NCBI GenBank assembly: GCA_964520505.1 | Contig: CAZFQP010000003.1 | Span: 16,738-80,737 of the forward strand | Direction of reading: 5' to 3' | Origin: an uncultured Candidatus Saccharibacteria bacterium | GTDB lineage: Bacteria > Patescibacteriota > Doudnabacteria > UBA920 | DNA: 64,000 bases | Shown here: piece by piece, positions 1,636 through 55,500 of the stretch | How positions within the stretch are numbered: the stretch's first letter is position 1 | Layout: every line of letters begins with the position of its first letter | The notes under the pieces: generated by a model | The model's database searches: none | What the model saw: the letters and a program-made list of their open reading frames with translations, nothing else | What the model was told of the DNA's origin: nothing | Translations under genes and position numbers: made by a program

Positions 1636-2187
1636 ATGAATGCAAAAATAATTTTAGCGGTAGTTGGTTTGGCCGGTGCCGGCAAAACCGAAACTACGGA
1701 ATATTTAATAAAACAAACCGGTTGGTCAAAGGTTTATTTTGGCCAAGTAGTTATGGACGAGGTGGCCAAGCGGGGACTGGAAGTCAACGAGGCAAATGAA
1801 AGATTAGTGCGGGAAGAATTGCGCGCAACGCACGGAATGGCGGCTATGGCCATTTTAAGCATTCCTAAAATTAAAGAACTTTTTGCCACGGGGAGCGTGA
1901 TATTGGAAAGTATGTATTCCTGGGAAGAATATCTGGCTTTAAAAGAAGCTTTTGGCGAAAGTTTTAAAGTTCTGGCAATTTTTTCTTCTCCGCAAACCAG
2001 AACCGCTCGGATGATTAATCGCCCCACTAGGCCCCTGACCCCCGAGCTTTTACAATCCAGGGACTATTCACAAATCGAAAATCTGCACCAGGCCGGACCA
2101 ATTGCCAGAGCAGATTGGACTATTGTTAACGAAGGAAGCAAAGAAGAACTATACAATAATCTCGAGGAGATTATTGGGAATTTATAA
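1636..2187 (+). CDS. P-loop nucleoside/nucleotide kinase-like protein (paralog 1); possible (d)NMP kinase
   Basis: Walker A GLAGAGKT near N-terminus; ~180 aa; C-terminus (EELYNNLEEIIGNL) homologous to the ORF at 2739; lies inside the dTTP cluster. Confidence 0.5.
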   Translation: MNAKIILAVVGLAGAGKTETTEYLIKQTGWSKVYFGQVVMDEVAKRGLEVNEANERLVREELRATHGMAAMAILSIPKIKELFATGSVILESMYSWEEYLALKEAFGESFKVLAIFSSPQTRTARMINRPTRPLTPELLQSRDYSQIENLHQAGPIARADWTIVNEGSKEELYNNLEEIIGNL

Positions 2188-2273
2188 GATTTAAAAGAAT
2201 GACATGATTGACAAGAATGGTTGCGAAAATCTTGCTCAATCTTTTAATTCATTTAAATCATGTCAATAAATTT
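2188..2273 (+). promoter_or_regulatory. Conserved ~85-bp intergenic module copy 1: TTGACAAGAAT..inverted repeat..TTTAATTCATTTAAAT..TTGTCAATAAATT (putative promoter plus operator)
   Basis: ~85% identical to 3310-3406; contains -35-like TTGACA/TTGTCA hexamers and a degenerate 11-bp inverted repeat. Confidence 0.5.
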
Positions 2274-2714
2274 ATGCTTGTAAAAATTAAACGCCTGGAT
2301 CCATCTATAGAATTGCCAAAATACCACACCTCAGAGTCGGCTGGTTTTGATATTGCCTCAAATGTTGATGTTGTAGTAGACCCTGGTCAGGTCGCCAAAA
2401 TACCCACCGGATTGGTAATTGCCGCTCCCAGCGGCCATTTTTTGCTCATATCAGCCCGCAGCAGCCTAGCTCTTAAAAAGGGTCTGAATATGGCCAATGG
2501 GGTTGGTATAATAGACCCAGACTATGCCGGTCCGAACGACCAGATCCACATTATAGTTCACAATTTTACCAACCAGCCGGTGGAGGTGAAAAAAGGCGAA
2601 CGTTTGGCGCAGGGAATATTTTTGCCGGCAGAGCAAGCTGTTTGGGAAGAAGTCGACCAACTGAGAGAGAATGACAGGGGAGGAGTGGGATCTACCGGAG
2701 GGTATAAGGATTGA
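2274..2714 (+). CDS. dut: dUTP diphosphatase (dUTPase)
   Basis: All dUTPase motifs present: SAGFDI, GLVIAAPSG, ARSSLA, GIIDPDY, RGGVGSTG. The ORF-track start at 2208 runs into the conserved intergenic repeat; ATG at 2274 (MLVKIKRL) preferred. Confidence 0.9.
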   Translation: MLVKIKRLDPSIELPKYHTSESAGFDIASNVDVVVDPGQVAKIPTGLVIAAPSGHFLLISARSSLALKKGLNMANGVGIIDPDYAGPNDQIHIIVHNFTNQPVEVKKGERLAQGIFLPAEQAVWEEVDQLRENDRGGVGSTGGYKD

Positions 2715-2738
2715 CCAAAAATGACCAAAATTTAAAAA

Positions 2739-3326
2739 TTGACCAAAAATAATATGCAGGAAACAGAACACAAAAAAAATATTATTGGTTTGGTGGGTGA
2801 AAAGCTTGCCGGTAAGGACACCGCTGCCAATTATCTGGTGAAAAAATACGGCGCCGGACATTTTCGGTTTACCCATATTTTGGACGCGATATTGGAAGAT
2901 TTAGATATGCCCATTTCCAGAAAGAACGAAATTGATTTAGGCTTGTCATTGCGCAAAATTTTTGGCGCTCATGTTTTGGTGGATGCTCTGGGGCATCGCG
3001 TAAGTAAATCTTGGGAAAACTTAATTGTGGTCAATGGCATTCGTATGGACGAGTTGGATGTAGTAAAAGGTTGGGAAGCAAAAATTATTTATATTACCGC
3101 GCCGGTTGAGCTGCGTTTTGAGCGATACAATATGCGCCATGAAAAAGACGACGACGGAGTTATGGATATAAATGCTTTTAAAGTTCAAGAAACCGGCCCG
3201 ACCGAAGCCGCCATTCCCGAGCTCGGCAAACAGGCGGATTTTAGAATCGATAATGTCGGCAGTTTAGAGGAGTTGTATAAGAAAGTTGATGGAATCATTG
3301 AAAATTTAAAAGATTTAAAAGAATGA
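2739..3326 (+). CDS. P-loop nucleoside/nucleotide kinase-like protein (paralog 2)
   Basis: P-loop GEKLAGKDT; C-terminus SLEELYKKVDGIIENL homologous to paralog 1; same position relative to the repeated intergenic module. Confidence 0.5.
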   Translation: MTKNNMQETEHKKNIIGLVGEKLAGKDTAANYLVKKYGAGHFRFTHILDAILEDLDMPISRKNEIDLGLSLRKIFGAHVLVDALGHRVSKSWENLIVVNGIRMDELDVVKGWEAKIIYITAPVELRFERYNMRHEKDDDGVMDINAFKVQETGPTEAAIPELGKQADFRIDNVGSLEELYKKVDGIIENLKDLKE

Positions 3327-3406
3327 CATGATTGACAAGAATAGCTGCAGAAATTCTTGTCAATTGTTTAATTCATTTAAATGTTGTCAATAAATTTATT
3401 ATTTTT
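3310..3406 (+). promoter_or_regulatory. Conserved intergenic module copy 2 with perfect 11-bp inverted repeat TTGACAAGAAT-N10-ATTCTTGTCAA
   Basis: Direct comparison with 2188-2273; palindrome with 11-bp arms typical of a dimeric HTH repressor operator overlapping -35-like hexamers. Confidence 0.5.
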
Positions 3407-4153
3407 ATGAGTTTATTAAAATTTGGAAAATCCAAAAAGAATAAGAACGAACAACAACCGTCCAAAGGTCGTTTTATTGTTATTGATGGTACGGATGGTA
3501 GCGGTAAGGCCACGCAAACTAATTTGCTCGTGGAAGAGTTAAAGTTGGGAGGCTATGAAGTGGAAATGACAGATTTTCCTCAGTATGGGACAAAATCCGC
3601 AGGGCTGATTGAAGAATATTTAAACGGCAAATACGGACAGGTTGGTCCGGAGGCGGCGTCAATTTTTTACGCAATTGACAGGTTTGATGCTTCATTTAAA
3701 ATTCGCGAGTGGTTGGCTGCCGGAAAGATTGTTATTTCCAATCGTTACGTTACCGCCAACGCCGGACATCAAGGCGGAAAAATTGCCGATGATATGGATC
3801 GGTTAAAGTACTTTAAATGGCTGGATAATTTGGAATACAACATTTTTAACATCCCCAAACCGGATTTAAATATTATTTTGCATATGCCCGCGGAAATGGC
3901 GCAGGAGCTGGTGGATAAAAAATCCGCGGACGTCAGGGGTTATGCCAATGGTAAAAAAAGAGACTTGCATGAAGCCGATTTGAATCATTTGAAAAATGCC
4001 GAAAAAGTTTACTTGGAAATTGCCAAGCTTTTCCCTAACACCAAGCTGGTGGAATGCGTAACCAACGGTAAACTGCAGTCGCCCGCCGAAGTCCATAATA
4101 AAGTTTGGGAACTGGTTCGGAGAATAGCGTTAAAAGATATTAAACCAAAATAA
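3407..4153 (+). CDS. tmk: thymidylate kinase (dTMP kinase)
   Basis: FIVIDGTDGSGKATQ P-loop and DRY/lid region typical of Tmk; start moved to ATG 3407 (MSLLKFGK) because the upstream part of the track ORF is the intergenic repeat. Confidence 0.85.
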   Translation: MSLLKFGKSKKNKNEQQPSKGRFIVIDGTDGSGKATQTNLLVEELKLGGYEVEMTDFPQYGTKSAGLIEEYLNGKYGQVGPEAASIFYAIDRFDASFKIREWLAAGKIVISNRYVTANAGHQGGKIADDMDRLKYFKWLDNLEYNIFNIPKPDLNIILHMPAEMAQELVDKKSADVRGYANGKKRDLHEADLNHLKNAEKVYLEIAKLFPNTKLVECVTNGKLQSPAEVHNKVWELVRRIALKDIKPK

Positions 4154-4226: not shown

Positions 4227-5156
4227 ATGAAAGTATACCATGATCTTCTACAAAAATTATTGGATGACGGCGTACAAAAAGACGACCGCACCGGTGTAGG
4301 CACGCGCAGTGTTTTTGGCTATCAAATGCGGGTAGATTTAGCCAAAGGCTTTCCGCTGCTCACAACCAAAAAAGTAAACCTTAAAGCGGTAATTATCGAA
4401 CTATTATGGTTTTTAAAAGGGGAGACTAATATTCGTTTTTTGGTGCAAAATGACGTAAAAATTTGGAATGAGTGGGCTTACCAAATTTATTTGGAACAGG
4501 AGTATTTGTTGGAAAAGTATCCGCGCTATTCGCCGGAGTGGAAGGCTCATATGCTGGAGTTTGTGGAAAAAATTAAGGCTGACGATGAATTTGCTAAAAA
4601 GTACGGCGAACTGGGCCCTATTTACGGCAAGCAGTGGCGCCGCTGGGCAGGCCCGAATGGCGAGGAAATCGACCAGGTACAAAACATTATAGATTTAATT
4701 AATCAAGACCCGACTTCCCGTCGCATCATCATCAGCGGTTGGAACGTTGGCGAGATTCAGGAATTAATCCGCAATCATCACCACGCCCCGCCGCCTTGCC
4801 ACACTTTATTTCAGTTTATGGTCATTGACGGCAAGTTGTCTTGCCAGCTATATCAACGCAGCGCCGACGCGTTTTTAGGAGTACCGTTTAACATCGCTTC
4901 TTATGCTTTGTTTACTATGATGCTGGCGCAGGTTACGGGTTTGCAGCCCGGCGAGTTTATTCATACTTTCGGCGACTTGCATATTTATAATAATCATAAA
5001 GAGCAGGTTAAAGAGCAATTGTCGCGCGAACCCAGAGCTTTGCCGACTATGAAGCTAAACCCTGCGGTTAAAAATATTTTTGACTTTAAATACGAAGATT
5101 TTACTTTGGAAGGCTACAATCCTTACCCGCCAATTAAAGCGCCGATTGCCGTCTAA
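4227..5156 (+). CDS. thyA: thymidylate synthase (ThyA type, long form)
   Basis: dUMP-binding and catalytic region ([11 protein letters not shown] with Cys nucleophile); N-terminal [11 protein letters not shown]; 309 aa. Confidence 0.92.
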
Positions 5157-5162
5157 ATACTA

Positions 5163-5236
5163 AAACACTAAATTACTAAATCTGCGGTTTTCGTATTTTC
5201 GATTATTTCGTATTTAGTAGAAATTGTTACAAACAA
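5163..5236. repeat. Nested-palindrome intergenic element (TACTAAAT...TTTCGTATTTAGTAGAA family) immediately upstream of folA start
   Basis: Arms TACTAAATCTG / CGTATTTAGTA; same terminal motif TTTCGTATTTAGTAGAA recurs at 26262-26288. Confidence 0.55.
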
Positions 5237-7822: not shown

Positions 7823-7837
7823 AAAATCTGGTATAAT

Positions 7838-7912
7838 GATTTTACGAAGTACGAATGAAGCGAACTTACGAAACTAGCACGTGTGCAAATTCGTAAGTTG
7901 TAAATATTCGTA
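7838..7912. repeat. Palindromic intergenic element, TTTTACGAAGTACGAAT...CGAACTTACGAA...ATTCGTAAGTT family (copy 1, partly degenerate), preceded by TATAAT
   Basis: Shares arms with copies at 25553-25638 and 26857-26943; sits immediately upstream of ftsE start. Confidence 0.6.
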
Positions 7913-7924
7913 TTGGTAAAGATT

Positions 7925-19694: not shown

Positions 19695-21011
19695 TTAATT
19701 ATTGCCCAAAAAATCTTTGGGATTATAAGTATAGCCATAAGGCACTTTATAAGCGCCATAAATTTTGGTATAGGCTCCGGGGTTTACGCCAAAGCCCTCG
19801 GCGTCATAAACGCCAAAGTGAATGTGGTATCCCCTTTCCGGCCCGTATAATTTTTTAGTAGTATTTCCCGTGTTGCCTTCATAGCCGATAACGTCTCCTT
19901 GTTTGACTTGCTGGCCAGGAGAAACTTTAAAACTTCTAAAGTGTCCGTATAAAGTAATAATTTGACTGCTGCCGTTTTTGGTGGAAATATTATGTTTAAT
20001 CGCAACCCAATTGCCGTAAGAGGCATCGCTTTTATCGGTATAAATAACTTCGCCGTCGGCAGCGGCGTAAATTGCCTGGCCTGCAGGGGCGGCAATATCT
20101 ATGCCATTATGAAAATTATAACCTAGCGCGGTAAAGCCGGTATTACCATAACCTTGAGTTAAAATCCCGTCCATTGGCCAGGCCAAAACGCCTTTAGCCG
20201 CCGGGATGGATTTGTTACCTAGCTTGGCGCGGATTTTTGCGTCTAAGTCCTGAATTTCTTTTTGCAGGTTGGCTTCATCTTCTTTGCTGGAAGCCAGAAG
20301 TTTTTGGAAGTTTTTTTCCAAGCCCTTGGTCTGGCTAAGCAAAGCTTGTTTTTGCCCCCGGATGCCGGATAAAGAACTTTTAGTAATTTCCAATTGATTT
20401 TTTAGTTCTTCCAGTTTTTTAACCTGAATTTCCAAATCCCGTTTTTGTCCTTCCAACTTGGCTTTTAACTCTTTAATTTTTTGCACCAGCTGGTATATTT
20501 TACCCTGTAAATTTTGAGTGAATTGCACTTGATCCAAAAAGTCAGACAGGCTATTGCTTCCAACCGTGGTTTTTAAGGCGTATTGGTCATCATATTGGTT
20601 AAGCTCGACAATTAATTGCCCCAAAACTTTTTTATTATCTTCTATCTCTTTAATTTTTTGTTCAATTAAATCTTGGAGTTGTTTAATTTGGAGGTTGGAA
20701 TCTTCAATTTGCGTTTGCTTGCCCTGGATTTGCAGTTCAGTTGAGGCAATTTGTTTGTCGTAAATGAAAATTTCGTTTTTTAAACTGTTGGATTTAGCTT
20801 GGGTCGTGGAAATTTGCTGCTGGTAGCTTTTAATTTGTTGATTGATTTCCTGAAGTTTTTTTTCATTAGCGGTTTTGGCCGCGGCTAGTTCGTCGGCGGT
20901 TTGTTCGGCAAAAACCGCATTAAAACCGCTCAAGCAAAAAATTAAGGCAACAATAAGCCCGCTAGCAAATTTTCTTTTTATTTTGGTATCAGTTTGTAAA
21001 AACATTAACAT
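19695..21011 (-). CDS. M23 family peptidoglycan endopeptidase with N-terminal coiled coil (EnvC-like)
   Basis: Long heptad-rich N-terminal half; C-terminal HxxxD...H.H M23 motifs (GIDIAAPAGQAIYAAADGEV ... GYHIHFGVYD). Confidence 0.8.
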   Translation of the reverse strand: MLMFLQTDTKIKRKFASGLIVALIFCLSGFNAVFAEQTADELAAAKTANEKKLQEINQQIKSYQQQISTTQAKSNSLKNEIFIYDKQIASTELQIQGKQTQIEDSNLQIKQLQDLIEQKIKEIEDNKKVLGQLIVELNQYDDQYALKTTVGSNSLSDFLDQVQFTQNLQGKIYQLVQKIKELKAKLEGQKRDLEIQVKKLEELKNQLEITKSSLSGIRGQKQALLSQTKGLEKNFQKLLASSKEDEANLQKEIQDLDAKIRAKLGNKSIPAAKGVLAWPMDGILTQGYGNTGFTALGYNFHNGIDIAAPAGQAIYAAADGEVIYTDKSDASYGNWVAIKHNISTKNGSSQIITLYGHFRSFKVSPGQQVKQGDVIGYEGNTGNTTKKLYGPERGYHIHFGVYDAEGFGVNPGAYTKIYGAYKVPYGYTYNPKDFLGNN

Positions 21012-21100: not shown

Positions 21101-22636
21101 TTAAGCCAGAGAGTTTATGGCGTTTTCCAGTCTGGCAATAATTTCTTTTTTGCCGTGGCCTAAAAATAAAATAGCCGAAACCTCAAACGGGCCGGGGCTT
21201 TTTTCCTGGCCGGTAAGCGCCACGCGCAGCGGCCACAATACCGAACCATTGTCGTAATTTTTGGAGGAAATGAAATTTTTAATTTCAGTTTCCAAATCCG
21301 TCTTGGCAAATTTGTCATCCGGCAAAGCCGTAAAAAAATCTTTTAAATCTGTTAATTTGGTTTTAGCGTCGGCTGCGTCGGCTTTTTTCCAAACTAAAAT
21401 TTTTGGGTCATATTGCGGGGCAGTAAAATAGTAAGCCGTCCCCTCCCCTATTTGGGATAGCTTTTTTAAGCGTTCTTTTTCCAAGTCTAAAATTGCCAGT
21501 AAAAAATTTTCCGGAAAATTTTCGGGGTTTATACCGGCAGCGGTCCAGAATTTTTTGGCTTCCGCCAATAGTTTGTCGGTAGACATCTGGCGAATATACA
21601 AGCCGTTAATCCAGTCGAGCTTGTTAACATCAAAAATTGGCGCGGACTTGTTAATTTTTTTAAGGTCGAACTGGGCAATTAATTCTTCCAGAGAAAATAT
21701 TTCCTGTTCGGTTTTCGGATTCCAACCTAAAAAGGCTACAAAGTTAATTAATGCTTGCGGTAAATAACCTTTAGCCAAAAAATCTTCCACTGCCACATCG
21801 CCCTGGCGTTTAGAAAGTTTGGATTTGTCGGTGTTTAAAGCTAGAGGCAAATGTGCGAATAGAGGCGCGGTCCAGCCGAAGGCTTTGTAAAGTAAAATGT
21901 GCTTTGGAGTAGAAGGGATCCATTCTTCGCCTCGGATGACGTGAGAAATTTCCATAAAATGGTCGTCGACTACCACAGCTAAATGGTAAGTGGGAAAGCC
22001 GTCGGATTTAAGCAATACCTGATCGTCTAGAATTTTATTTTCGTAAACAATCCGGCCATAAATTAAATCTTCAATTACCGTCTGTCCTTCTTGTGGCATG
22101 GCAAAACGTACCACCGGCCTTTTTCCATTAGCTGCAAATTCGGTCTGCTGTTTGGCAGTTTCTTCAGCCGAAAGGTTGCGGCAATGGCGGTCATACATCG
22201 GCGGTTTTTTTAAAGCTGTTTGTTCTTTGCGCAAGTCATCTAACCGTTGTTCGCTGCAAAAGCAGTAATAGGCCTTATTTTCTTTAATAAGCTGGTCGAT
22301 GTGTTTATGATAAATATCTAATCTTTCCGATTGCAAGTAAGGGCCAAGCGCTCCCTTTTGTGTTGCCTTGCCATGTTTGTCCAGTACAAAACCTTCGTCA
22401 AATTCTATGCCCACAGTTTTCATTACTGTAAGTAAATTCTCCACCGCGCCTTCTACTTTGCGGTTTTGGTCGGTGTCTTCCACGCGCAGGACAATTTGCC
22501 CGTGGTTGTGGCGCGCGAATAAAAAGGCGAACAGCGCGGTGCGTAGGCTGCCAATGTGAACGAAGCCGGTTGGTGATGGTGCGAATCTGGTTCTAATAGT
22601 GTTCATGGTGTAAAAATTTTGGTCAATTCTGATCAA
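21101..22636 (-). CDS. gltX: glutamyl-tRNA synthetase
   Basis: HIGH motif (PSPTGFVHIGSLRTAL) and KLSKRQG (KMSKS); 511 aa. Confidence 0.92.
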   Translation of the reverse strand: MIRIDQNFYTMNTIRTRFAPSPTGFVHIGSLRTALFAFLFARHNHGQIVLRVEDTDQNRKVEGAVENLLTVMKTVGIEFDEGFVLDKHGKATQKGALGPYLQSERLDIYHKHIDQLIKENKAYYCFCSEQRLDDLRKEQTALKKPPMYDRHCRNLSAEETAKQQTEFAANGKRPVVRFAMPQEGQTVIEDLIYGRIVYENKILDDQVLLKSDGFPTYHLAVVVDDHFMEISHVIRGEEWIPSTPKHILLYKAFGWTAPLFAHLPLALNTDKSKLSKRQGDVAVEDFLAKGYLPQALINFVAFLGWNPKTEQEIFSLEELIAQFDLKKINKSAPIFDVNKLDWINGLYIRQMSTDKLLAEAKKFWTAAGINPENFPENFLLAILDLEKERLKKLSQIGEGTAYYFTAPQYDPKILVWKKADAADAKTKLTDLKDFFTALPDDKFAKTDLETEIKNFISSKNYDNGSVLWPLRVALTGQEKSPGPFEVSAILFLGHGKKEIIARLENAINSLA

Positions 22637-24027
22637 TTTTGGTCAATCTTGTCAATGTCTATTATACCTTTTTCCGCCATTTCTTTCAAATCCGCCATAG
22701 CCAGGCGTGCTAGATTTTTTCTTTCTGCGGCTAACTCTTTTTCTATCATATTTGCGGGAATAAAGCGGTGCGTTAATAGTTCTCTTTTGTCCGGAAAATC
22801 TATGTCGGCTTCATTGCCGAGAAATTTGAAATAAACCACATTCTGTTTTTGCCCCTTGTAAAGGAAATGTTTATTGACCCAAAACTTTCTGCCCGAGTCA
22901 TTCCAAAAATAAATATTTTGATGCGGCGAGGTGTATAAATATTCCACGGCGGTAATGCCGGTTTCTTCCATGAGCTCCCTGGCTGCAGCGTCAATCAAAT
23001 TTTCATTTTGATCAATTCCACCCTGGGGAAACTGCCAGTAGTTTTCATGGTCAAAAGCAAAGGCCTCGCCAATTAAATCCACACGAAAATCTTTGGGGTT
23101 GCGCTGGCAAATCATTACTTGGTTTTGGCGGTTGAGCAGAACAATTACCACATTTGGTCTTAGCCCATAGGTATCAAAAACTTTATAGTGCCAGAGGGCA
23201 GAAGCTAAACCCCAAGTGGCGTTAATTATGCGTTTTAAGCGGTTTTTTTGGGTAAACAACCGCCACAGCCACTCTAAGCCCATAGAACGCAAGAATTTGG
23301 GCGGAATTGGCCTTTTTCCGGCCAAATAATCAAAGCTGCCACCTAAGCCAATAAGCAGTTTACAGGGTAATTTTTCCTTTACCGAGGCTAGCCAAAGCTC
23401 TTGCTCTATGGCCTTTAGTCCTGCGAAAAGCAGGTCTGGCGAGGCGGTTTTTATGTCCTCGATAATTGTTGGATCAGCAATATTTTTGTTGGAATAACCG
23501 GCGATTTTTAGTTTGGGAAATTTGGCAGTTAATTTTTCGGCGGCAAGTTTTGGCGTGTCGCTCGCCCCGCCGAATAAATACACGGAGAGATTATTTTTTT
23601 CCGCCAGCGCGGCCAAGTCCCAAATTAAATCCGCGCCGACAATTTTTTCCGGCAAGGCGCGTTTGATCCATGAAGGATAAAAAATAATCGACGCCAGGCT
23701 GTAGGCAATTTGCCAGGCGCTTTGGAAAATTTTTAGCCAATAATTTTTTGCGCTAAGCGGAAGTTCCAAATATTTTTTCGCCCAGAAAATTCCGATGCCG
23801 TCGGCCAAAGAAAAATCCGCCTGGTTATAAATATCCATAAGTTTGCGGCTTTGCAAAGCATGAAAAAGAAATTCGGAATACGGGGTAATGACCCAGGTTT
23901 TTTGCCCGCGCAAAAGCCGCTCCTTGAGCTGGCCAAGAAAAGCGGTTTTGGTTATGGCATCTATTTGTAAACCCGCGACATTAACTTTAGACATATCTTC
24001 TGTATTATACCCGCTTTTTATTGACAT
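22633..24027 (-). CDS. fusion protein: WecB/TagA/CpsF-family glycosyltransferase domain + C-terminal NUDIX hydrolase domain
   Basis: N-terminal VNVAGLQIDAI...ADGIGIFWA and GLEWLWRL (WecG/TagA family); C-terminal Nudix box GGIDQNENLIDAAARELMEETGI; 4-bp overlap with gltX. Confidence 0.7.
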   Translation of the reverse strand: MSIKSGYNTEDMSKVNVAGLQIDAITKTAFLGQLKERLLRGQKTWVITPYSEFLFHALQSRKLMDIYNQADFSLADGIGIFWAKKYLELPLSAKNYWLKIFQSAWQIAYSLASIIFYPSWIKRALPEKIVGADLIWDLAALAEKNNLSVYLFGGASDTPKLAAEKLTAKFPKLKIAGYSNKNIADPTIIEDIKTASPDLLFAGLKAIEQELWLASVKEKLPCKLLIGLGGSFDYLAGKRPIPPKFLRSMGLEWLWRLFTQKNRLKRIINATWGLASALWHYKVFDTYGLRPNVVIVLLNRQNQVMICQRNPKDFRVDLIGEAFAFDHENYWQFPQGGIDQNENLIDAAARELMEETGITAVEYLYTSPHQNIYFWNDSGRKFWVNKHFLYKGQKQNVVYFKFLGNEADIDFPDKRELLTHRFIPANMIEKELAAERKNLARLAMADLKEMAEKGIIDIDKIDQN

Positions 24028-24593: not shown

Positions 24594-24616
24594 TCATCGG
24601 GGAGAAATAAGCTTAA

Positions 24617-24655
24617 CCGGCGGCGGACACATTGTGTGTCTGCCGCCGGTATTAA
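24617..24655 (+). terminator. GC-rich hairpin ACCGGCGGCGGACACATTGTGTGTCTGCCGCCGGT
   Basis: 15-bp stem after the regulator gene. Confidence 0.6.
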
Positions 24656-24693
24656 TTTTCCAAAAATTCCAAAAATAAGCTATAATATACTAT

Positions 24694-25002
24694 ATGGAAG
24701 CACTGAAAAACATTGTTAAATCTACCGGAAAGAATATAAGGCCGAAGAAAAATGTGCATTTGCACTCCCCTGCCCATTTGCTGGCTGACGAGCTGTGCCA
24801 AAGGTTAAATGACAAAAAGCATTTTGCCTTTTATTTAAAAATGGCGGTTTTGTATAATCATGATTACCTGCGCGGTTTGGCCGGACAAATTTTGGAAAAT
24901 AAAAATGCCAAAACCCCCGGACGCTTATTTGCCTATTTAATTAAAAAAAATAATCTTGAGAAAAAATCTCCCCCAGCGGTTTCAGGCGGAGTATCTGTTT
25001 AA
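24694..25002 (+). CDS. hypothetical protein
   Basis: 102-aa ORF preceded by a TATAAT box; no recognisable motif. Confidence 0.35.
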   Translation: MEALKNIVKSTGKNIRPKKNVHLHSPAHLLADELCQRLNDKKHFAFYLKMAVLYNHDYLRGLAGQILENKNAKTPGRLFAYLIKKNNLEKKSPPAVSGGVSV

Positions 25003-25049: not shown

Positions 25050-25553
25050 ATGGTTTTGCCAATATTAACTTATCCGAATGAAATTTTAAGAAAACCGACC
25101 CAGCCGGTTAGTTTTCCCTTGTCCCCGGAAATAAAAAAGTTGACCAAGGATATGATAGACACCGTGCGCAATGCCGACGGGATTGGTTTGGCGGCGCCGC
25201 AGGTGGGTAAATCTGTTAAATTAATTGTTATTAATTTAGAAAAAAGCGGCATTCCGCTGATGGTTTTGTATAATGCTAAAGTAATTAGCCGCGGTTTTAA
25301 GAAAGTTGATATTGAAGAAGGCTGTTTGTCTATCCCAGGGATTTATGGCAATGTTCGCCGGCCAAAAAAGGTGACCGTAGAAGCTTATACAGCGGATGGA
25401 AAGAAAATAAAGTTTATAGATGACGGTTGGATTGCCCGAGTAGCTCAGCACGAAATTGACCATACAAATGGAATACTGATTATCGACCTGATTAAGAAGT
25501 ACACACAAGGAGAAGAGAAAGTAAAAGAGTGGAAGGAAAAGAAATTAATTTGA
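25050..25553 (+). CDS. def: peptide deformylase
   Basis: Three PDF motifs: GIGLAAPQVG, EGCLSIPG, HEIDHTNG. Confidence 0.92.
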   Translation: MVLPILTYPNEILRKPTQPVSFPLSPEIKKLTKDMIDTVRNADGIGLAAPQVGKSVKLIVINLEKSGIPLMVLYNAKVISRGFKKVDIEEGCLSIPGIYGNVRRPKKVTVEAYTADGKKIKFIDDGWIARVAQHEIDHTNGILIIDLIKKYTQGEEKVKEWKEKKLI

Positions 25554-25638
25554 TTTTACGAAGTACGAATACCTACGAACTTACGAAGTGAGCTCGGGTG
25601 GAAATTCGTAAGTTCGTAAAGGTTAGTACTTCGTAAAA
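25553..25638. repeat. Palindromic intergenic element copy 2 (TTTTACGAAGTACGAAT..CGAACTTACGAAG..ATTCGTAAGTTCGTAAAG..GTACTTCGTAAAAT), nested hairpins; ends 1 nt before the next start codon
   Basis: Outer arms TTTTACGAAGTAC / GTACTTCGTAAAA and inner arms CGAACTTACGAA / TTCGTAAGTTCG are exact reverse complements. Confidence 0.65.
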
Positions 25639-25639
25639 T

Positions 25640-26176
25640 ATGAAGTTTATTAAAGACCTGCTTTTTTTTGAAATTCAGACTACGGGGCAAAATGCCGACA
25701 AGGATTCTATTGTCCAATTGTCGGCGGTTTTGTTGGATAAGGATAATTTGCTGGAAAAAAATAATTTTAACAGCTATATTAAAGTTAGTTATTTAGATAG
25801 CGTGATTGCAGACCATGCGCGCCTACTGAACGTAGACCAAAATATGTTGCGTAAGAGCCCGAAGGTTTATGATTGTATTAAACAGTTTAATCACAAATTC
25901 GGCAACGATTTACTTTTGGCCAGTTATAGTTTTGACAATTTATTGTTCTTGAAAAACGCATTTAAAAAAGCTGTTGTCCCTTTTAATTATGATCCTCATA
26001 TTGTGCAGTTGTGGACTTTGGGATATATATATACTTTGAATTACGGCTTGAAAAAAATGCCAACGCTCAATACTTTTTTGGATTATTTTCGTTTAAAGTT
26101 AAAAAATCCGTTTGACTCAATGGAGCGAGCTCGCTTGGAAGCCGAGGTATTTAGAAAGATAATTAAAGAAGTATAG
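25640..26176 (+). CDS. DnaQ-like 3'-5' exonuclease paralog with degenerate catalytic motifs (likely inactive)
   Basis: Homologous to 26290 ORF (KDLLFFEIQTTG vs KDILLIDTEFTG; shared VQLSAVLLDK). Exo I D-x-E becomes E-x-Q; Exo III H...D replaced by F...R. Confidence 0.55.
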   Translation: MKFIKDLLFFEIQTTGQNADKDSIVQLSAVLLDKDNLLEKNNFNSYIKVSYLDSVIADHARLLNVDQNMLRKSPKVYDCIKQFNHKFGNDLLLASYSFDNLLFLKNAFKKAVVPFNYDPHIVQLWTLGYIYTLNYGLKKMPTLNTFLDYFRLKLKNPFDSMERARLEAEVFRKIIKEV

Positions 26177-26288
26177 GCTCTACTAAATACTAAAAAATAC
26201 AAAAAAGTACTAAATCAGAATTAATTACCGCTTTCGTCAGTACGGTTTAGTATCTTTAGTAGCATTTCGTATTTAGTAGAAGGAAATC
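26177..26288. repeat. Nested-palindrome element of the TACTAAATAC family (terminal 11-bp inverted repeats CTACTAAATAC / GTATTTAGTAG) between the two exonuclease paralogs
   Basis: Ends TTTCGTATTTAGTAGAAGG just upstream of the start codon, as at 5205-5236. Confidence 0.55.
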
Positions 26289-26289
26289 T

Positions 26290-26853
26290 ATGGATTTCAA
26301 CAAAGACATTTTATTGATTGACACTGAGTTTACTGGTTTTGATATTGATAAGCACGAAATTGTGCAGTTGGCCGCAGTGTTGCTGGATAAAAAAACCTTA
26401 AAGGAAAAAAAGTTTTTTTCTTCTTATATTAAGCCTCGGCGCTGGAAAACGCGCAATCGGGAATCGATGAAAGTGAATAACATTACTCTAGAAATGTTGC
26501 AAGGCGCGCCGGACTTAAAAGAGGTTTTAAAAAAATTTGACCGAACGTTTGGCCACAACGTCATTCAGGCTTTTTATGTCGGCTATAATGACAAACGTTT
26601 TTTACTGGAAAGCTATAGGCGCGCGGGACTAAAATGGCGGTTTGACTATCACTATTTTGAGCTTTGGGGTTTGTTTTATCCCTTTTTAGCCGTTAAAAAT
26701 AAACTTAAGACCATAAAAGATTTTGCCGGGTTTGGGATTGAATCGATGTTAAAAATTTTTAAAATTGAACAACCGGACAATTTGCATGATGCTTTAACTG
26801 ACTGCCGGGTGGAAGCGGAAATTTTAAGAAAAGTAATTAAACAAATAATTTAA
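26290..26853 (+). CDS. DEDDh-family 3'-5' exonuclease (DnaQ/oligoribonuclease-like), intact motifs
   Basis: Exo I IDTEFTG, Exo II YNDKRFL, Exo III HDALTDCRVEAE. Confidence 0.7.
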   Translation: MDFNKDILLIDTEFTGFDIDKHEIVQLAAVLLDKKTLKEKKFFSSYIKPRRWKTRNRESMKVNNITLEMLQGAPDLKEVLKKFDRTFGHNVIQAFYVGYNDKRFLLESYRRAGLKWRFDYHYFELWGLFYPFLAVKNKLKTIKDFAGFGIESMLKIFKIEQPDNLHDALTDCRVEAEILRKVIKQII

Positions 26854-26856
26854 CAG

Positions 26857-26943
26857 ACTTTACGAAGTACGAATTTATACTAACTTACGAAGAAAACTCG
26901 TAGGGGAATTCGTAAGTTCGTAAAGATTGGTACTTCGTAAAAT
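26857..26943. repeat. Palindromic intergenic element copy 3 (same family as 25553-25638), ends 2 nt before fmt start
   Basis: CTTTACGAAGTACGAAT...AACTTACGAAG...ATTCGTAAGTTCGTAAAG...GTACTTCGTAAAAT. Confidence 0.65.
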
Positions 26944-26945
26944 TT

Positions 26946-27872
26946 ATGAGGATTATTTTTTTTGGCACTGCTAACGTGGCCTTGCCCATTTTGGAAGAAT
27001 TAAGGTTGGAACATGACATTGTGGCCGTGGTTACCACGCCCGATGTTAAGGTTGGTCGCAAGCAAATTTTGCAGGAAAGTCCGGTGTCGGCTTTGGCTAA
27101 GGATTTAAATTTAACTACCTACAAACCAGAAAAGATAAAAAATAACCCTGAATTTTTAAAAATTTTGACCGATTTAGCCGCTGATATTTTTGTGGTGGTG
27201 GCTTACGGCAAAATTTTGCCTATGGAAGTTATTAACCTGCCGCCACATAAAACTGTTAATGTCCATTTTTCCCTGCTGCCAAAATATCGCGGTCCGTCCC
27301 CAATTCAGGCCGCCCTACTTGCCGGTGACACCCATACAGGCTCAAGTATTTTTGTGCTGGACGAAGGTGTGGATACAGGACCATTAATTGCCCAGGAAAT
27401 TTTAGCTGTTGAGCCGGACGACAACTTTTTTACTCTCTCAGATAAGTTGGCAAGGTTTTCTGCAAAATTAATTTTACCAACTTTGGAAGACTACACAGGA
27501 GGTAAAATTACTCCCCTACCCCAAGTAGAAGAAGGCATCAGTCAAACTAAAATTATTTCCAAAGTTGACGGTAAAGCCGATTGGAACCAGTCGGCTGCGG
27601 AAATTTATAACCGATTCCGGGCATTTTATATTTGGCCCGGACTATGGTCTACCTGGCAAGGTAAAACTTTAAAAATCACCGATTGTCGGCCGGTGGATTC
27701 CCAAGCACTAAAAGATGTTGCCGTCGGATCAATTTTGGATGGTGGAATTGTTGTGTGTGGTCAAAATACCGCCTTACAAATTAGTAGCCTGCAGCTTGAG
27801 GGAAAAACCGAAGTGGCAATTATGGATTTTTTGAACGGTTATAAAAATTTCGTGGGCAGCAGGCTCGAATAG
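26946..27872 (+). CDS. fmt: methionyl-tRNA formyltransferase
   Basis: N-terminal formyltransferase domain MRIIFFGT...VVTTPD, SLLPKYRGPSPIQ motif, C-terminal Fmt domain; def-fmt linkage. Confidence 0.9.
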   Translation: MRIIFFGTANVALPILEELRLEHDIVAVVTTPDVKVGRKQILQESPVSALAKDLNLTTYKPEKIKNNPEFLKILTDLAADIFVVVAYGKILPMEVINLPPHKTVNVHFSLLPKYRGPSPIQAALLAGDTHTGSSIFVLDEGVDTGPLIAQEILAVEPDDNFFTLSDKLARFSAKLILPTLEDYTGGKITPLPQVEEGISQTKIISKVDGKADWNQSAAEIYNRFRAFYIWPGLWSTWQGKTLKITDCRPVDSQALKDVAVGSILDGGIVVCGQNTALQISSLQLEGKTEVAIMDFLNGYKNFVGSRLE

Positions 27873-27889
27873 TTATAAGTACAAATTTA

Positions 27890-27932
27890 AAACTGGCCAA
27901 ACCGGGAGATTGTCCTAGTTTGGCCAGTTTTA
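27890..27932. terminator. Bidirectional terminator AACTGGCCAAAC...GTTTGGCCAGTTTT
   Basis: 12-bp stem between convergent fmt and mltG. Confidence 0.65.
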
Positions 27933-34308: not shown

Positions 34309-35097
34309 TTATTTTAAGTTTAAGTAATATCTTCTTTGTTTTTCCGGCAGGCGTTCAATGCTGTAGCGCAAGGCGGTACGTGGCATTTTTTTAGCATTGG
34401 CGTCCAAAAAGGCAGTTAAATATTTTTCCCCACAACGCTTGCCCATTTCCCGCAGCATCCACCCGGTGGCTTTATGTATGAGGTCGTGTTTATCGGTTAA
34501 TAAACTTTTTGCTATAGCAATAGCGTCTTTTGTTTCCCCATTTTTTAAAAAAGTAAAAGTCGCGAGTATGGCAATGCGCCTCTCCCACAAGTTTTTGGAT
34601 TTGGCGAGTTTGTTTAGTGTTTTGTTTTTTACCCTCACCCCTGCCCCTCTCCCGTCAAGGGAGAGGGAATAAAGATAAGACCCAACTATATTCGGTGCGG
34701 ATAAATCTACCAAGTCCCAGTTGTTTATGTACTTAGTATGCCCTAAATAAAATTGATAGACATCTTTTGGTGTTATTTTCAAATGAGATCCTTCTCCGCC
34801 CGCCGGCGAATCAGGATGACGCTTTATAAGATTAGAATATTTTTTTACTAATATAAGCAAGGCGATAAGTCGTTCTTCGTGGATTTTAGATTTGATTAAT
34901 TTATCCAAATCGGCCAGGGATAACTTATCCCAGTATTTGTTTTCCAAGACGCGTTGCTGCGGCACCATAAGTCCTAAAAAAATATCCCCTGCCCCATACT
35001 GGCCGGGCGCAGTTTTAAAAAACCGCTGCAAAATTTTTGCTTTAGCGGGGCTGGCTAACTTTTTGATATCTGATTTTAGGAGGTTTAAGTTTGACAT
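34309..35097 (-). CDS. DNA alkylation repair enzyme (AlkC/AlkD-like HEAT-repeat glycosylase family)
   Basis: Family signature region WDLVDLSAPNIVGSYL...ATGWMLREMGKR; carries an in-frame GC-rich hairpin/G4-type insertion (SLSLDGRGAGVRV). Confidence 0.75.
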   Translation of the reverse strand: MSNLNLLKSDIKKLASPAKAKILQRFFKTAPGQYGAGDIFLGLMVPQQRVLENKYWDKLSLADLDKLIKSKIHEERLIALLILVKKYSNLIKRHPDSPAGGEGSHLKITPKDVYQFYLGHTKYINNWDLVDLSAPNIVGSYLYSLSLDGRGAGVRVKNKTLNKLAKSKNLWERRIAILATFTFLKNGETKDAIAIAKSLLTDKHDLIHKATGWMLREMGKRCGEKYLTAFLDANAKKMPRTALRYSIERLPEKQRRYYLNLK

Positions 35098-54612: not shown

Positions 54613-55500
54613 TTATTCTGTTATTAACCGTTTAAATTTTTCAAAATCTTGGCGGCCGTGGACGCGGATGCGCGGAATTTCCATTAGGTTTTCCAAATTA
54701 ACCCGGTTGCCTTCGTGAACCGTAACCCCTAAGTCAAAGCCGCATGCTTTGGCTTGTTTAATATAATTGGCAGTATAGTGGCCGTAGGGATATATTAAAA
54801 TATTTGTGTTAAAACCCAGGTGGTCGCTTATATCTTTTTTCGATTCGCACAAATTCTTGTATATAAACTCATTGGAAAATTTAGGATTTTTGCCATCAAA
54901 ATGGTCTTGGGTGTGGGAAACTATCTCGTTGCCAGCGTCATAAGCCTTGGCAATTTCATTCCACGAAGCGTAAAAATTGTCGCCGTTTTGAGTACCGGGA
55001 AATTGAGTAATAATCGCAAAGCTTCCGCTAAATCCGTTTTGCTTTAGAATTGGCGCAGCGTATAAAAAGACATTTTCATAGCCGTCATCAAAAGTAAAAA
55101 TAACTGGATTTTTTGGCATAGTAAATTTACCGGCGGCAAAATCCCGCAAGTCAGACAGGTGGATGCTGGTATAGCCGTTATCTTTAAGCCACTTAACCTG
55201 GGTGGTAAATTCTTCTACGGACACGGTTAAATCACGCCTTAGATCTGTAGGTTTTTCAGGTAAGGGACCTATGTGGTGATACATTAATATGGGCAATTTT
55301 ATGCTGCGACCAACCGGCGCCTTTGGCAGGGCCTCGGTGTCTTTATTGGTAATTAGCCGGGCATAAGCGGTGTCCCCTGTTTTATCGCTCTCAATTTTTT
55401 TTAAGGTTTGCCAGTTGTTATAAAATCGAAAAACCATCGCGGACAATAAAATCACGACAACAGTAACGGCGAGAGAAAAGTTTTTATTCTTTTTAGTCAT
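54613..55500 (-). CDS. polysaccharide deacetylase (NodB-homology, PgdA/CDA1 family), membrane-anchored
   Basis: TFDDGY motif 1 and histidine motifs of NodB domain; N-terminal TM. Confidence 0.8.
   Translation of the reverse strand: MTKKNKNFSLAVTVVVILLSAMVFRFYNNWQTLKKIESDKTGDTAYARLITNKDTEALPKAPVGRSIKLPILMYHHIGPLPEKPTDLRRDLTVSVEEFTTQVKWLKDNGYTSIHLSDLRDFAAGKFTMPKNPVIFTFDDGYENVFLYAAPILKQNGFSGSFAIITQFPGTQNGDNFYASWNEIAKAYDAGNEIVSHTQDHFDGKNPKFSNEFIYKNLCESKKDISDHLGFNTNILIYPYGHYTANYIKQAKACGFDLGVTVHEGNRVNLENLMEIPRIRVHGRQDFEKFKRLITE

Follow-up and report, generated by a model that had tools for sequence, protein, structure and literature searches.

Introduction

The DnaQ-like exonucleases of the DEDDh superfamily (Pfam PF00929) share one fold, which is found in DNA polymerase III epsilon, the PolC exonuclease, RNase T, the DinG exonuclease domain, and Cas2-DnaQ. 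Catalytically dead binding domains of the DEDD fold include Exuperantia and Egalitarian of Drosophila and the exonuclease-like domains of eukaryotic Pol alpha and Pol zeta. The genes exoA and exoB encode two further proteins of this fold and lie, separated by palindromic hairpin elements, between def and fmt in a 64,000-nucleotide stretch of contig CAZFQP010000003.1 (assembly GCA_964520505.1, positions 16,738 to 80,737 of the forward strand; hereafter the window) from an uncultured bacterium of the Doudnabacteria lineage of Patescibacteria. Taken together, the evidence makes it likely that this locus is a Doudnabacteria operon in which an old, dead exoA is kept beside an active exoB, and that its hairpins, which resemble REP, ERIC, or miniature inverted-repeat transposable element (MITE) sequences, are secondary.

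Short palindromes between bacterial genes fall into several described classes. ERIC/IRU elements and the Correia elements of Neisseria (NEMIS) are imperfect palindromes of about 100-150 nt located in transcribed intercistronic regions. A repetitive extragenic palindromic (REP) unit is a 20-40-bp palindrome with an unpaired GTAG or CGTC tag (PMC3733652), and REP/REPIN elements associate with RAYT proteins, which are Y1 transposases (PMC3733652, PMC3116915). A literature search returned nothing on the operon described here, nor on such repeats in Patescibacteria.

The def-fmt Operon of Doudnabacteria

Open reading frame (ORF) listing and Pfam scans of the window place exoA and then exoB in the interval between def and fmt, at the coordinates given by a first-pass annotation made from the sequence. 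The peptide deformylase gene def (25050..25553, + strand; PF01327, 158 bits) is followed on the same strand by exoA (25640..26176; 178 aa; PF00929), exoB (26290..26853; 187 aa; PF00929), and the methionyl-tRNA formyltransferase gene fmt (26946..27872; PF00551 and PF02911). The apparent first gene of the operon is orf102 (24694..25002, + strand; 102 aa), which has no Pfam or PADLOC match and lies directly 5' of def in nearly all of 74 related loci. It appears to encode a conserved protein to which Pfam and PADLOC assign no function.

The 74 loci were obtained by scanning one genome per species and comprise 7.5-kb pieces of relatives. All belong to Doudnabacteria-type Patescibacteria, and several third-party annotation (TPA) records among them carry the generic label 'Saccharibacteria'. 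The order orf102-def-exoA-exoB-fmt is found in about 63 of the 74 species-level loci, usually with yceG convergent to it. The first-pass annotation had noted that def and fmt are normally adjacent and had suggested an insertion or duplication here; the gene order is lineage-wide. Related active exonucleases of 175-180 aa in Nomurabacteria, Campbellbacteria, and other groups adjoin tyrS/trpS, recR/cysS, or ychF and do not lie between def and fmt. On these gene orders, the placement of exo genes between def and fmt is a synapomorphy of the Doudnabacteria lineage.

Eight species (L067-L070 and L073-L076) carry a single exonuclease gene between def and fmt, and in each it is of the exoA type. The motifs of these single-copy genes read DQNRN, DENHN, or SENHN, and the Asp residues of Exo II and Exo III are lost there too. 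The constant occupant of the def-fmt slot is the dead copy, exoA, and not the active exoB, which argues against exoA as a mere accessory of exoB. The unit orf102-def-exoA-exoB-fmt is probably a Doudnabacteria-specific operon, with a likely promoter near 24657-24686 and a likely terminator near 27888-27932.

Catalytic Residues and Family Membership of ExoA and ExoB

ExoA and ExoB are members of the DEDDh superfamily by both fold and profile, with PF00929 (RNase_T) scores of 33.1 and 83.8 bits, respectively, against a curated cut-off of 24. The two proteins are 33% identical (BLASTP E 1e-29) and match each other with a profile-profile probability of 99.8%. AlphaFold (AF2) models built from orthologue alignments have a pLDDT of 88.7 for ExoA and 90.5 for ExoB, and both superpose on solved DEDDh structures, including S. 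aureus DinG and CRN-4, with a TMq of 0.71-0.81 and a Foldseek probability of 1.00. The ExoA model reaches a TMq of 0.71-0.77 to the DinG exonuclease domain, Cas2-DnaQ, RNase T, the PolC exonuclease, and epsilon, and the ExoB model reaches 0.78 to RNase T and 0.81 to the DinG exonuclease domain.

The DEDDh catalytic set is complete in ExoB and is not found in ExoA. ExoB has all five catalytic residues of the PF00929 enzymes (D11, E13, D101, H166, and D171, in the motifs DTEFTG, ND, and HDALTD), as the first-pass reading of Exo I, Exo II, and Exo III had it, whereas ExoA lacks four to five of the five. In the profile alignment, ExoA places E11, Q13, N99, F158, and R163 at the matching positions. 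The E/Q and F/R replacements that had been read from the sequence are thus present, and the Exo II Asp, which that reading did not mention, is also lost.

These replacements are general in the family, as tallied over the catalytic columns of 121 ExoA and 121 ExoB orthologues. At the Exo I Asp column, the ExoA family has Glu in 110 and Asp in 10, against Asp in 119 in the ExoB family; at the Exo I Glu column, it has Gln in 70, Thr in 18, Asn in 11, Ser in 7, and Glu in 5, against Glu in 119. The Exo II Asp column holds Asn in 72, Ser in 20, His in 10, Gln in 9, Lys in 7, and no Asp in the ExoA family, against Asp in all 121 ExoB orthologues. At Exo III, the His column reads Phe in 41, Trp in 28, Tyr in 21, and His in 7 (ExoB family, His in 120), and the Asp column reads Lys in 102, Arg in 14, and no Asp (ExoB family, Asp in 120). 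The D/E/D/H/D set of ExoB is therefore retained in 119-121 of 121 orthologues. By these residues, ExoB is predicted to be an ordinary, canonical DEDDh 3'-5' exonuclease. The first-pass view of ExoA as non-catalytic is supported by the same columns, and ExoA is, as far as its residues and modelled fold tell, a pseudo-exonuclease that has lost the metal-binding and general-base residues, keeps the family fold, and should not be filed as an enzyme.

Alignment to DnaQ, RNase T, and oligoribonuclease profiles, which the first-pass annotation had proposed as a check, gave a match at the level of the superfamily. No NCBIfam equivalog (epsilon, RNase T, Orn, ExoX, or KapD) scored near its cut-off for either protein, and for this reason ExoA and ExoB are classed, from their sequences, as stand-alone members of the superfamily that match no named enzyme. 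DNA polymerase III epsilon (DnaQ proper) was rejected for both, with TIGR00573 at 35-43 bits against a cut-off of 71.5, and again for ExoB with TIGR01406 at 39.6 bits against 222.7. In the models, both proteins stop at the Exo III helix and have no C-terminal segment for binding the alpha subunit or the clamp. ExoB was likewise rejected as RNase T or oligoribonuclease (TIGR01298, 12 bits against 246; PRK05359, 16.6 against 106), so its resemblance to RNase T in structure is one of superfamily only, and ExoA had no match to the RNase T or oligoribonuclease equivalog models. PADLOC returned only its generic DEDDh model. Unlike epsilon and the other described members, ExoA and ExoB are free-standing proteins of about 180 aa without a polymerase- or clamp-binding tail, and their genes have a lineage-specific placement between def and fmt.

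Conservation and Possible Roles of ExoA

ExoA orthologues are nearly all exactly 178 aa long and are 66-93% identical to the window ExoA, and ExoB orthologues are 58-81% identical to the window ExoB. In the 63 species that carry both, ExoA proteins average 59% pairwise identity and ExoB proteins 51%, and the ExoA value is the higher one in 91% of species pairs. These identities show that exoA is under stronger purifying selection than exoB. Because of its constant length and its conservation above that of exoB, exoA is not a degenerating gene.

A profile search of 1.84 billion cluster representatives found only about ten ExoA-like clusters, and all weaker matches were DEDHD. The motif sets of these clusters are all different: EQNFR, EATGD, DVNYR, DQNNN, ENNRR, DINNR, DTTKR, EISKY, DEKHR, and DEPFR. 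In a rough neighbor-joining tree, exoA and the single-copy genes are monophyletic (74/74), and exoB clusters with active exonucleases of other Patescibacteria. By its phylogeny and conservation, exoA is an old and narrow pseudo-exonuclease clade rather than a decaying gene, and it constitutes a new pseudoenzyme subfamily of a known superfamily.

The Lys or Arg at the Exo III Asp position and the aromatic residue at the His position suggest that ExoA may retain binding of a nucleic-acid 3' end. ExoA would then act as a binding or regulatory protein, either alone or with ExoB. Because of the def/fmt context, RNA of the translation apparatus may, more speculatively, be its substrate. In keeping the exonuclease fold and a conserved sequence while its catalytic residues are replaced, ExoA is like Exuperantia, Egalitarian, and the corresponding domains of Pol alpha and Pol zeta. 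These eukaryotic examples, however, are parts of larger proteins, whereas ExoA is bacterial, stands alone, and is encoded beside an active paralogue.

Two other accounts of ExoA bear on this reading. ExoA and ExoB could form an obligatory heterodimer with ExoA as its non-catalytic subunit, one protein binding and the other catalysing in the manner of an RNase T-type dimer. In its favor, the two genes lie side by side on one strand in 63 species, exoA is strongly conserved, and the homodimeric RNase T is among the best structural matches of ExoB; yet in eight species the exoA type is the only exo gene between def and fmt, and several of the closest folds (the DinG exonuclease domain, the PolC exonuclease, and Cas2-DnaQ) are monomeric. 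An obligatory partnership is possible but doubtful, because exoA occurs without exoB in the operon. It is very unlikely that ExoA is still an exonuclease through shifted residues, for example E11 together with the Asp at position 98. Position 11 is indeed acidic, with Glu or Asp in nearly all orthologues, and in the window ExoA an Asp does immediately precede the Exo II position, but the orthologue column there is unconserved and reads Ser, Asn, Gln, Thr, or His. The other four catalytic positions are non-acidic and variable among orthologues and clusters, with Lys or Arg at the Exo III Asp in 116 of 121. No complete DEDD set made up of shifted residues was seen in ExoA, and the pseudo-exonuclease assignment is retained.

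Palindromic Elements at the Gene Junctions

The elements of the operon are palindromes of about 85 nt whose arms consist of 3-4 direct copies of a 6-8-nt word. A covariance model, R1, was built from 13 element copies with 27 stem pairs, 10 of which show compensatory double changes. R1 finds exactly five copies in the window, three of them in the def-fmt operon, a copy number that applies to these 64 kb only.

In gap 1, between def and exoA, a palindromic repeat of the TACGAA-word type (25553..25639) begins at the final base of the def stop codon and ends immediately before the exoA ATG. It has 35-nt arms that are 86% complementary and a 17-nt loop, scores 98 bits with R1, and folds as RNA at -40.7 kcal/mol (z -8.2 against dinucleotide shuffles, as for the other repeat elements below). 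The gap 3 repeat between exoB and fmt (26857..26943) is also of the TACGAA type and is 81% identical to that of gap 1 over 97 nt; its 33-nt arms are 88% complementary, its R1 score is 96 bits, and it folds at -37.1 kcal/mol (z -7.8). Each arm of these two elements comprises four TACGAA-type words; from base to tip, the hairpin has about 13 bp of outer stem, an internal loop, about 14 bp of inner stem, and then the 17-nt loop. The gap 2 repeat between exoA and exoB (26177..26282) builds the same architecture from TACTAAA words, with 26-nt arms that are 81% complementary, an R1 score of 46-48 bits, and a fold of -24.9 kcal/mol (z -3.2). An AAGGAAA Shine-Dalgarno-like motif lies between this hairpin and the exoB ATG. 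The first-pass annotation had placed hairpins in all three gaps, which holds, but had them end 1-3 nt before the start codons, which does not: the distance from hairpin to ATG is 0 nt for exoA, 2-4 nt for fmt, and 7-9 nt for exoB.

Two further R1 copies lie elsewhere in the window, at junctions whose gene names come from reading translations. The fourth copy (7839..7922), of the TACGAA type, sits between a release-factor-like gene and an ftsE-like ATPase gene, with an R1 score of 67.6 bits and a fold of -28.2 kcal/mol (z -3.9). An extended -10-like sequence, TGGTATAAT, occupies 7823-7838 immediately 5' of it, and a transcript from this site would begin with the hairpin. The fifth copy (5150..5223), at the thyA/folA junction, scores 26-28 bits; its left arm has ACTAAA words and its right arm TTCGTA words, the arms are unpaired (fold z -1.3), and the copy is chimeric or decaying. 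All copies in the window adjoin + strand genes. R1 favors the orientation in which its training copies were aligned, and R1 matches outside the training set score about equally on both strands. A second, unrelated palindromic family (AATGACATGATTGACAAGAAT...) was observed at 2180-2267 and 3313-3382, between short + strand ORFs (1636-4153), and contains TTGACA-like motifs.

Distribution and Conservation of the Elements

The elements differ in presence, type, and site between species and even between strains. The loci were also scanned with an ungapped palindrome finder, which misses asymmetric copies. In at least 11 species with both exo genes, all three junctions measure -8 to +13 nt, often as ATGA overlaps, and hold no palindrome, whereas other species have gaps of 55-145 nt with one hairpin filling each. 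R1 finds 18 copies in the 74 loci, all at def/exoA, at exoA/exoB, or just before fmt. The words vary by species and junction and include TACGAA, TACGGA, TACTAA, ATACAAAT, CGCAGAT, CCGAAT, CAGTG, CGCTGA, AAACAT, and others. The CCGAAT type alone is found at exoB/fmt in L008 and L009, at def/exoA in L021, and at exoA/exoB in L015, L040, and L047. Strains L003 and L004 encode the same ExoA protein as the window and have nearly identical coding DNA around the exoA/exoB junction, while the junction itself carries a 90-nt TACGAA type in place of the 113-nt TACTAAA type. The hairpins are secondary settlers in junctions that overlap or abut in relatives, and each fills the space from stop to start because it was inserted into a junction without a prior spacer.

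The first-pass annotation had further proposed that the palindromes mediated the insertion or tandem duplication of the exo genes. The elements do flank both exo copies in the window, and those of gaps 1 and 3 are closely similar, but the same gene order exists without any palindrome in the species noted above, elements at the same junction are unrelated between species, and exoA and exoB each form a deep clade across all species. With 33% identity between the paralogues and clades of this depth, the duplication long predates the near-intact repeats. A lineage-wide arrangement that does not depend on repeats is also the outcome that the first-pass annotation had itself named as contrary to its proposal. 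Mediation by the elements is hardly credible, and the palindromes had no part in the exo duplication.

Three observations on neighboring or related sequences are recorded here. A true MITE, of one family with the ends CCCRGTAATACAAC...GTTGATATACYGGG, is present at L003:1540-1768 and L029:3355-3502. It occupies an identical site in these two divergent genomes, inside the exoA start (ATGAA, the MITE, and then TGAAGTTTAT); a TGAA duplication accompanies it, and the end of the MITE supplies a new GTG start. A loose criterion of a 20-bp hairpin after the stop codon was satisfied by 31% of operon junctions and 18% of other junctions, with too many false positives. Finally, a metagenome scan for the 14-mer TACGAACTTACGAA gave only chance single matches among the matches listed.

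Some copies are conserved beyond the genes that flank them. Between the window and L009, the def/exoA element is 97% identical at the DNA level, against 73% for the neighboring genes (def 76%, exoA 72%). Between L024 and L037, the exoA/exoB element is 100% identical over 86 nt, against 72% for exoA. The identity blocks reach about 20-27 nt into each flanking gene and then fall sharply (100% for L024:1051-1181 with L037:4014-4144; 97% for window:25527-25660 with L009:3388-3521). These blocks could reflect strong constraint, loops included, or short patches of recombination between species.

Classification of the Elements

By distribution and position, the elements most resemble intercistronic palindromes of the REP/REPIN, ERIC, Correia, and MITE type. 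They are like ERIC/IRU and NEMIS in that their presence varies between relatives and in that they are expected to fold in mRNA with effects on its stability or processing. They differ from both in their unrelated sequences, their word-repeat arms, their Patescibacteria host, and the lack of a demonstrated TA duplication. Like REP/REPIN elements, they are short extragenic palindromes that lie mostly between co-directional genes and 3' of ORFs, occur as several families per genome, are in some cases long conserved, and form hairpins of about 80-110 nt (PMC3733652, PMC3116915). They are unlike REP/REPIN in that their arms are direct word repeats that are not themselves palindromic, and the TACGAA type carries no GTAG or CGTC tag. 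The hairpins are new repeat families, with word-built arms, of a known class, and they may turn over by transposition or by short recombination patches.

Several specific identities were considered, and all but the MITE were rejected. A REP unit does not fit the TACGAA type, whose arms have no self-complementarity; only the TACTAAA type has CTAC...GTAG at its outer ends. With respect to MITEs, the inverted arms are obvious, but inspection of the five window copies and related copies revealed no consistent flanking duplication, and a TA duplication would be indistinguishable from the palindrome. The ends ATTTTAC/GTAAAAT are one mismatch each from the R'' RYYYAAC and R' GTTRRRY cores of attC sites, but in place of mobile promoterless cassettes the neighbors are housekeeping genes whose order is fixed across 74 species. 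Intrinsic terminators were rejected, as the three operon elements are absent from the terminator scan and their A+T-rich stems (GC 0.29-0.38) are followed by ATG with no T-run. Internal promoters were rejected as well, since the consensus matches within the operon are weak (9-10 of 12) and about as many as chance would give (9.4 sites expected). TIGR arrays have short tandem guide units, unlike single hairpins between housekeeping genes. In Rfam, only tRNAs reach the gathering threshold in the window, and the E-value mode returned nothing but models of microRNA-precursor hairpins, whose scores of 26-36 bits compare with thresholds of 83-211 and amount to noise.

The alternative to mobile or selfish DNA is that the hairpins are selected cis-acting RNA elements, such as a translational-coupling bridge, an RNase processing site, or a 3'-end stabiliser. 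Such elements would account for the 97-100% identity at orthologous sites, loops included, between genes that are only about 72-76% identical, and for the compensatory changes in the stems. The hairpin base coincides with stop and start codons in a genome poor in Shine-Dalgarno motifs; three of the five window copies, and 18 of the 18 matches in the 74 loci, are at junctions of this operon. However, the flush fit between stop and start is a trivial outcome of insertion into a zero-length junction, and at least 11 species have the same operon without the elements. Different families occur at one junction and one family at different junctions, an element has been swapped between strains, and a decayed copy is tolerated at thyA/folA. 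Stem mismatches in 36 operon palindromes comprise 37 G.U and 39 A.C on the sense strand, and because G.U is about as frequent as A.C, the symmetry is apparently kept at the DNA level, and selection for a sense-RNA fold is not evident. A selected RNA role is accordingly held to be the less probable account, though one to be kept in view.

The interpretation preferred here, of an old dead exoA and an active exoB in a Doudnabacteria operon with secondary hairpins, is weakened by several points. Conservation of some orthologous-site copies above that of the genes looks like functional constraint rather than selfish turnover. The mobility of the elements is read from their distribution, and no target-site duplication, transposase, or RAYT was found in the 64 kb and the 7.5-kb pieces. 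The promoter and terminator calls are consensus matches, and the binding role of ExoA is conjectured from two residue replacements.

Predicted Expression of the Operon

A terminator-like hairpin at 24616..24650 (+ strand), with a 16-bp G+C-rich stem, a T-rich tail, and a fold of -36.7 kcal/mol (z -6.3), appears to close the upstream transcription unit. It is followed by a promoter-like site, TTTCCA-18-TATAAT (24657..24686, + strand), which matches the consensus at 10 of 12 positions and whose -10 box ends 7 nt before the orf102 ATG. The operon transcript would start from this site and be nearly leaderless. Its end may be marked by a terminator-like hairpin between the convergent genes fmt and yceG (27888..27932), which has 20-nt arms that are 90% complementary and a 5-nt loop (gap z -8.9).

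Shine-Dalgarno-like motifs precede 11 of the 63 window ORFs of at least 100 aa, and many window genes have a TATAAT-like box 6-10 nt before the ATG. Examples are the genes at 19695-21011 (- strand), 24694, 34309-35097 (- strand), 15866, and 54613-55500 (- strand). This pattern suggests that leaderless or nearly leaderless mRNAs are widespread.

Neither exoA nor fmt has a Shine-Dalgarno motif, and the start codon of each directly adjoins a stem of about -40 kcal/mol. If transcribed, the elements would form stems of -25 to -41 kcal/mol in the polycistronic mRNA, hide the region just 5' of these two starts, and impede 3'-5' decay of the segments upstream. Ribosomes ending the upstream cistron could melt the outer stem, and downstream translation would depend on them. 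The translation of exoA and fmt probably relies in this way on ribosomes arriving from the upstream cistron.

A stronger version of this idea holds that the hairpins are selected stop-start bridges, which keep stop and start adjacent and are possibly acted on by ExoA and ExoB; this is judged quite unlikely. Were it true, an 85-nt insertion would be 'transparent' to termination-reinitiation, as a bacterial counterpart of ribosome shunting, and the near-identity of element copies between far less conserved genes would reflect the bridging function. The active and dead exonuclease pair might then bind or trim hairpin-ended RNAs, leading to autoregulation.

Other Features of the Window

Read by eye alone, a 464-aa ORF at 22633-24027 (- strand) seems to combine a WecB/TagA-type glycosyltransferase region with a Nudix box (GGIDQNENLIDAAARELMEETG) at its C terminus.

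Implications

Public records label exoA as 'exonuclease' or 'Pol III epsilon-like', which would mislead metabolic and replication reconstructions. The association of a DnaQ-fold pair with the def/fmt translation-start operon offers a concrete and testable hypothesis. The word-built palindromic repeats are previously undescribed in Patescibacteria; they settle in stop/start junctions, and their conservation at times exceeds that of essential genes. They provide a tractable case of how mobile hairpins may coexist with translational coupling in very small genomes.

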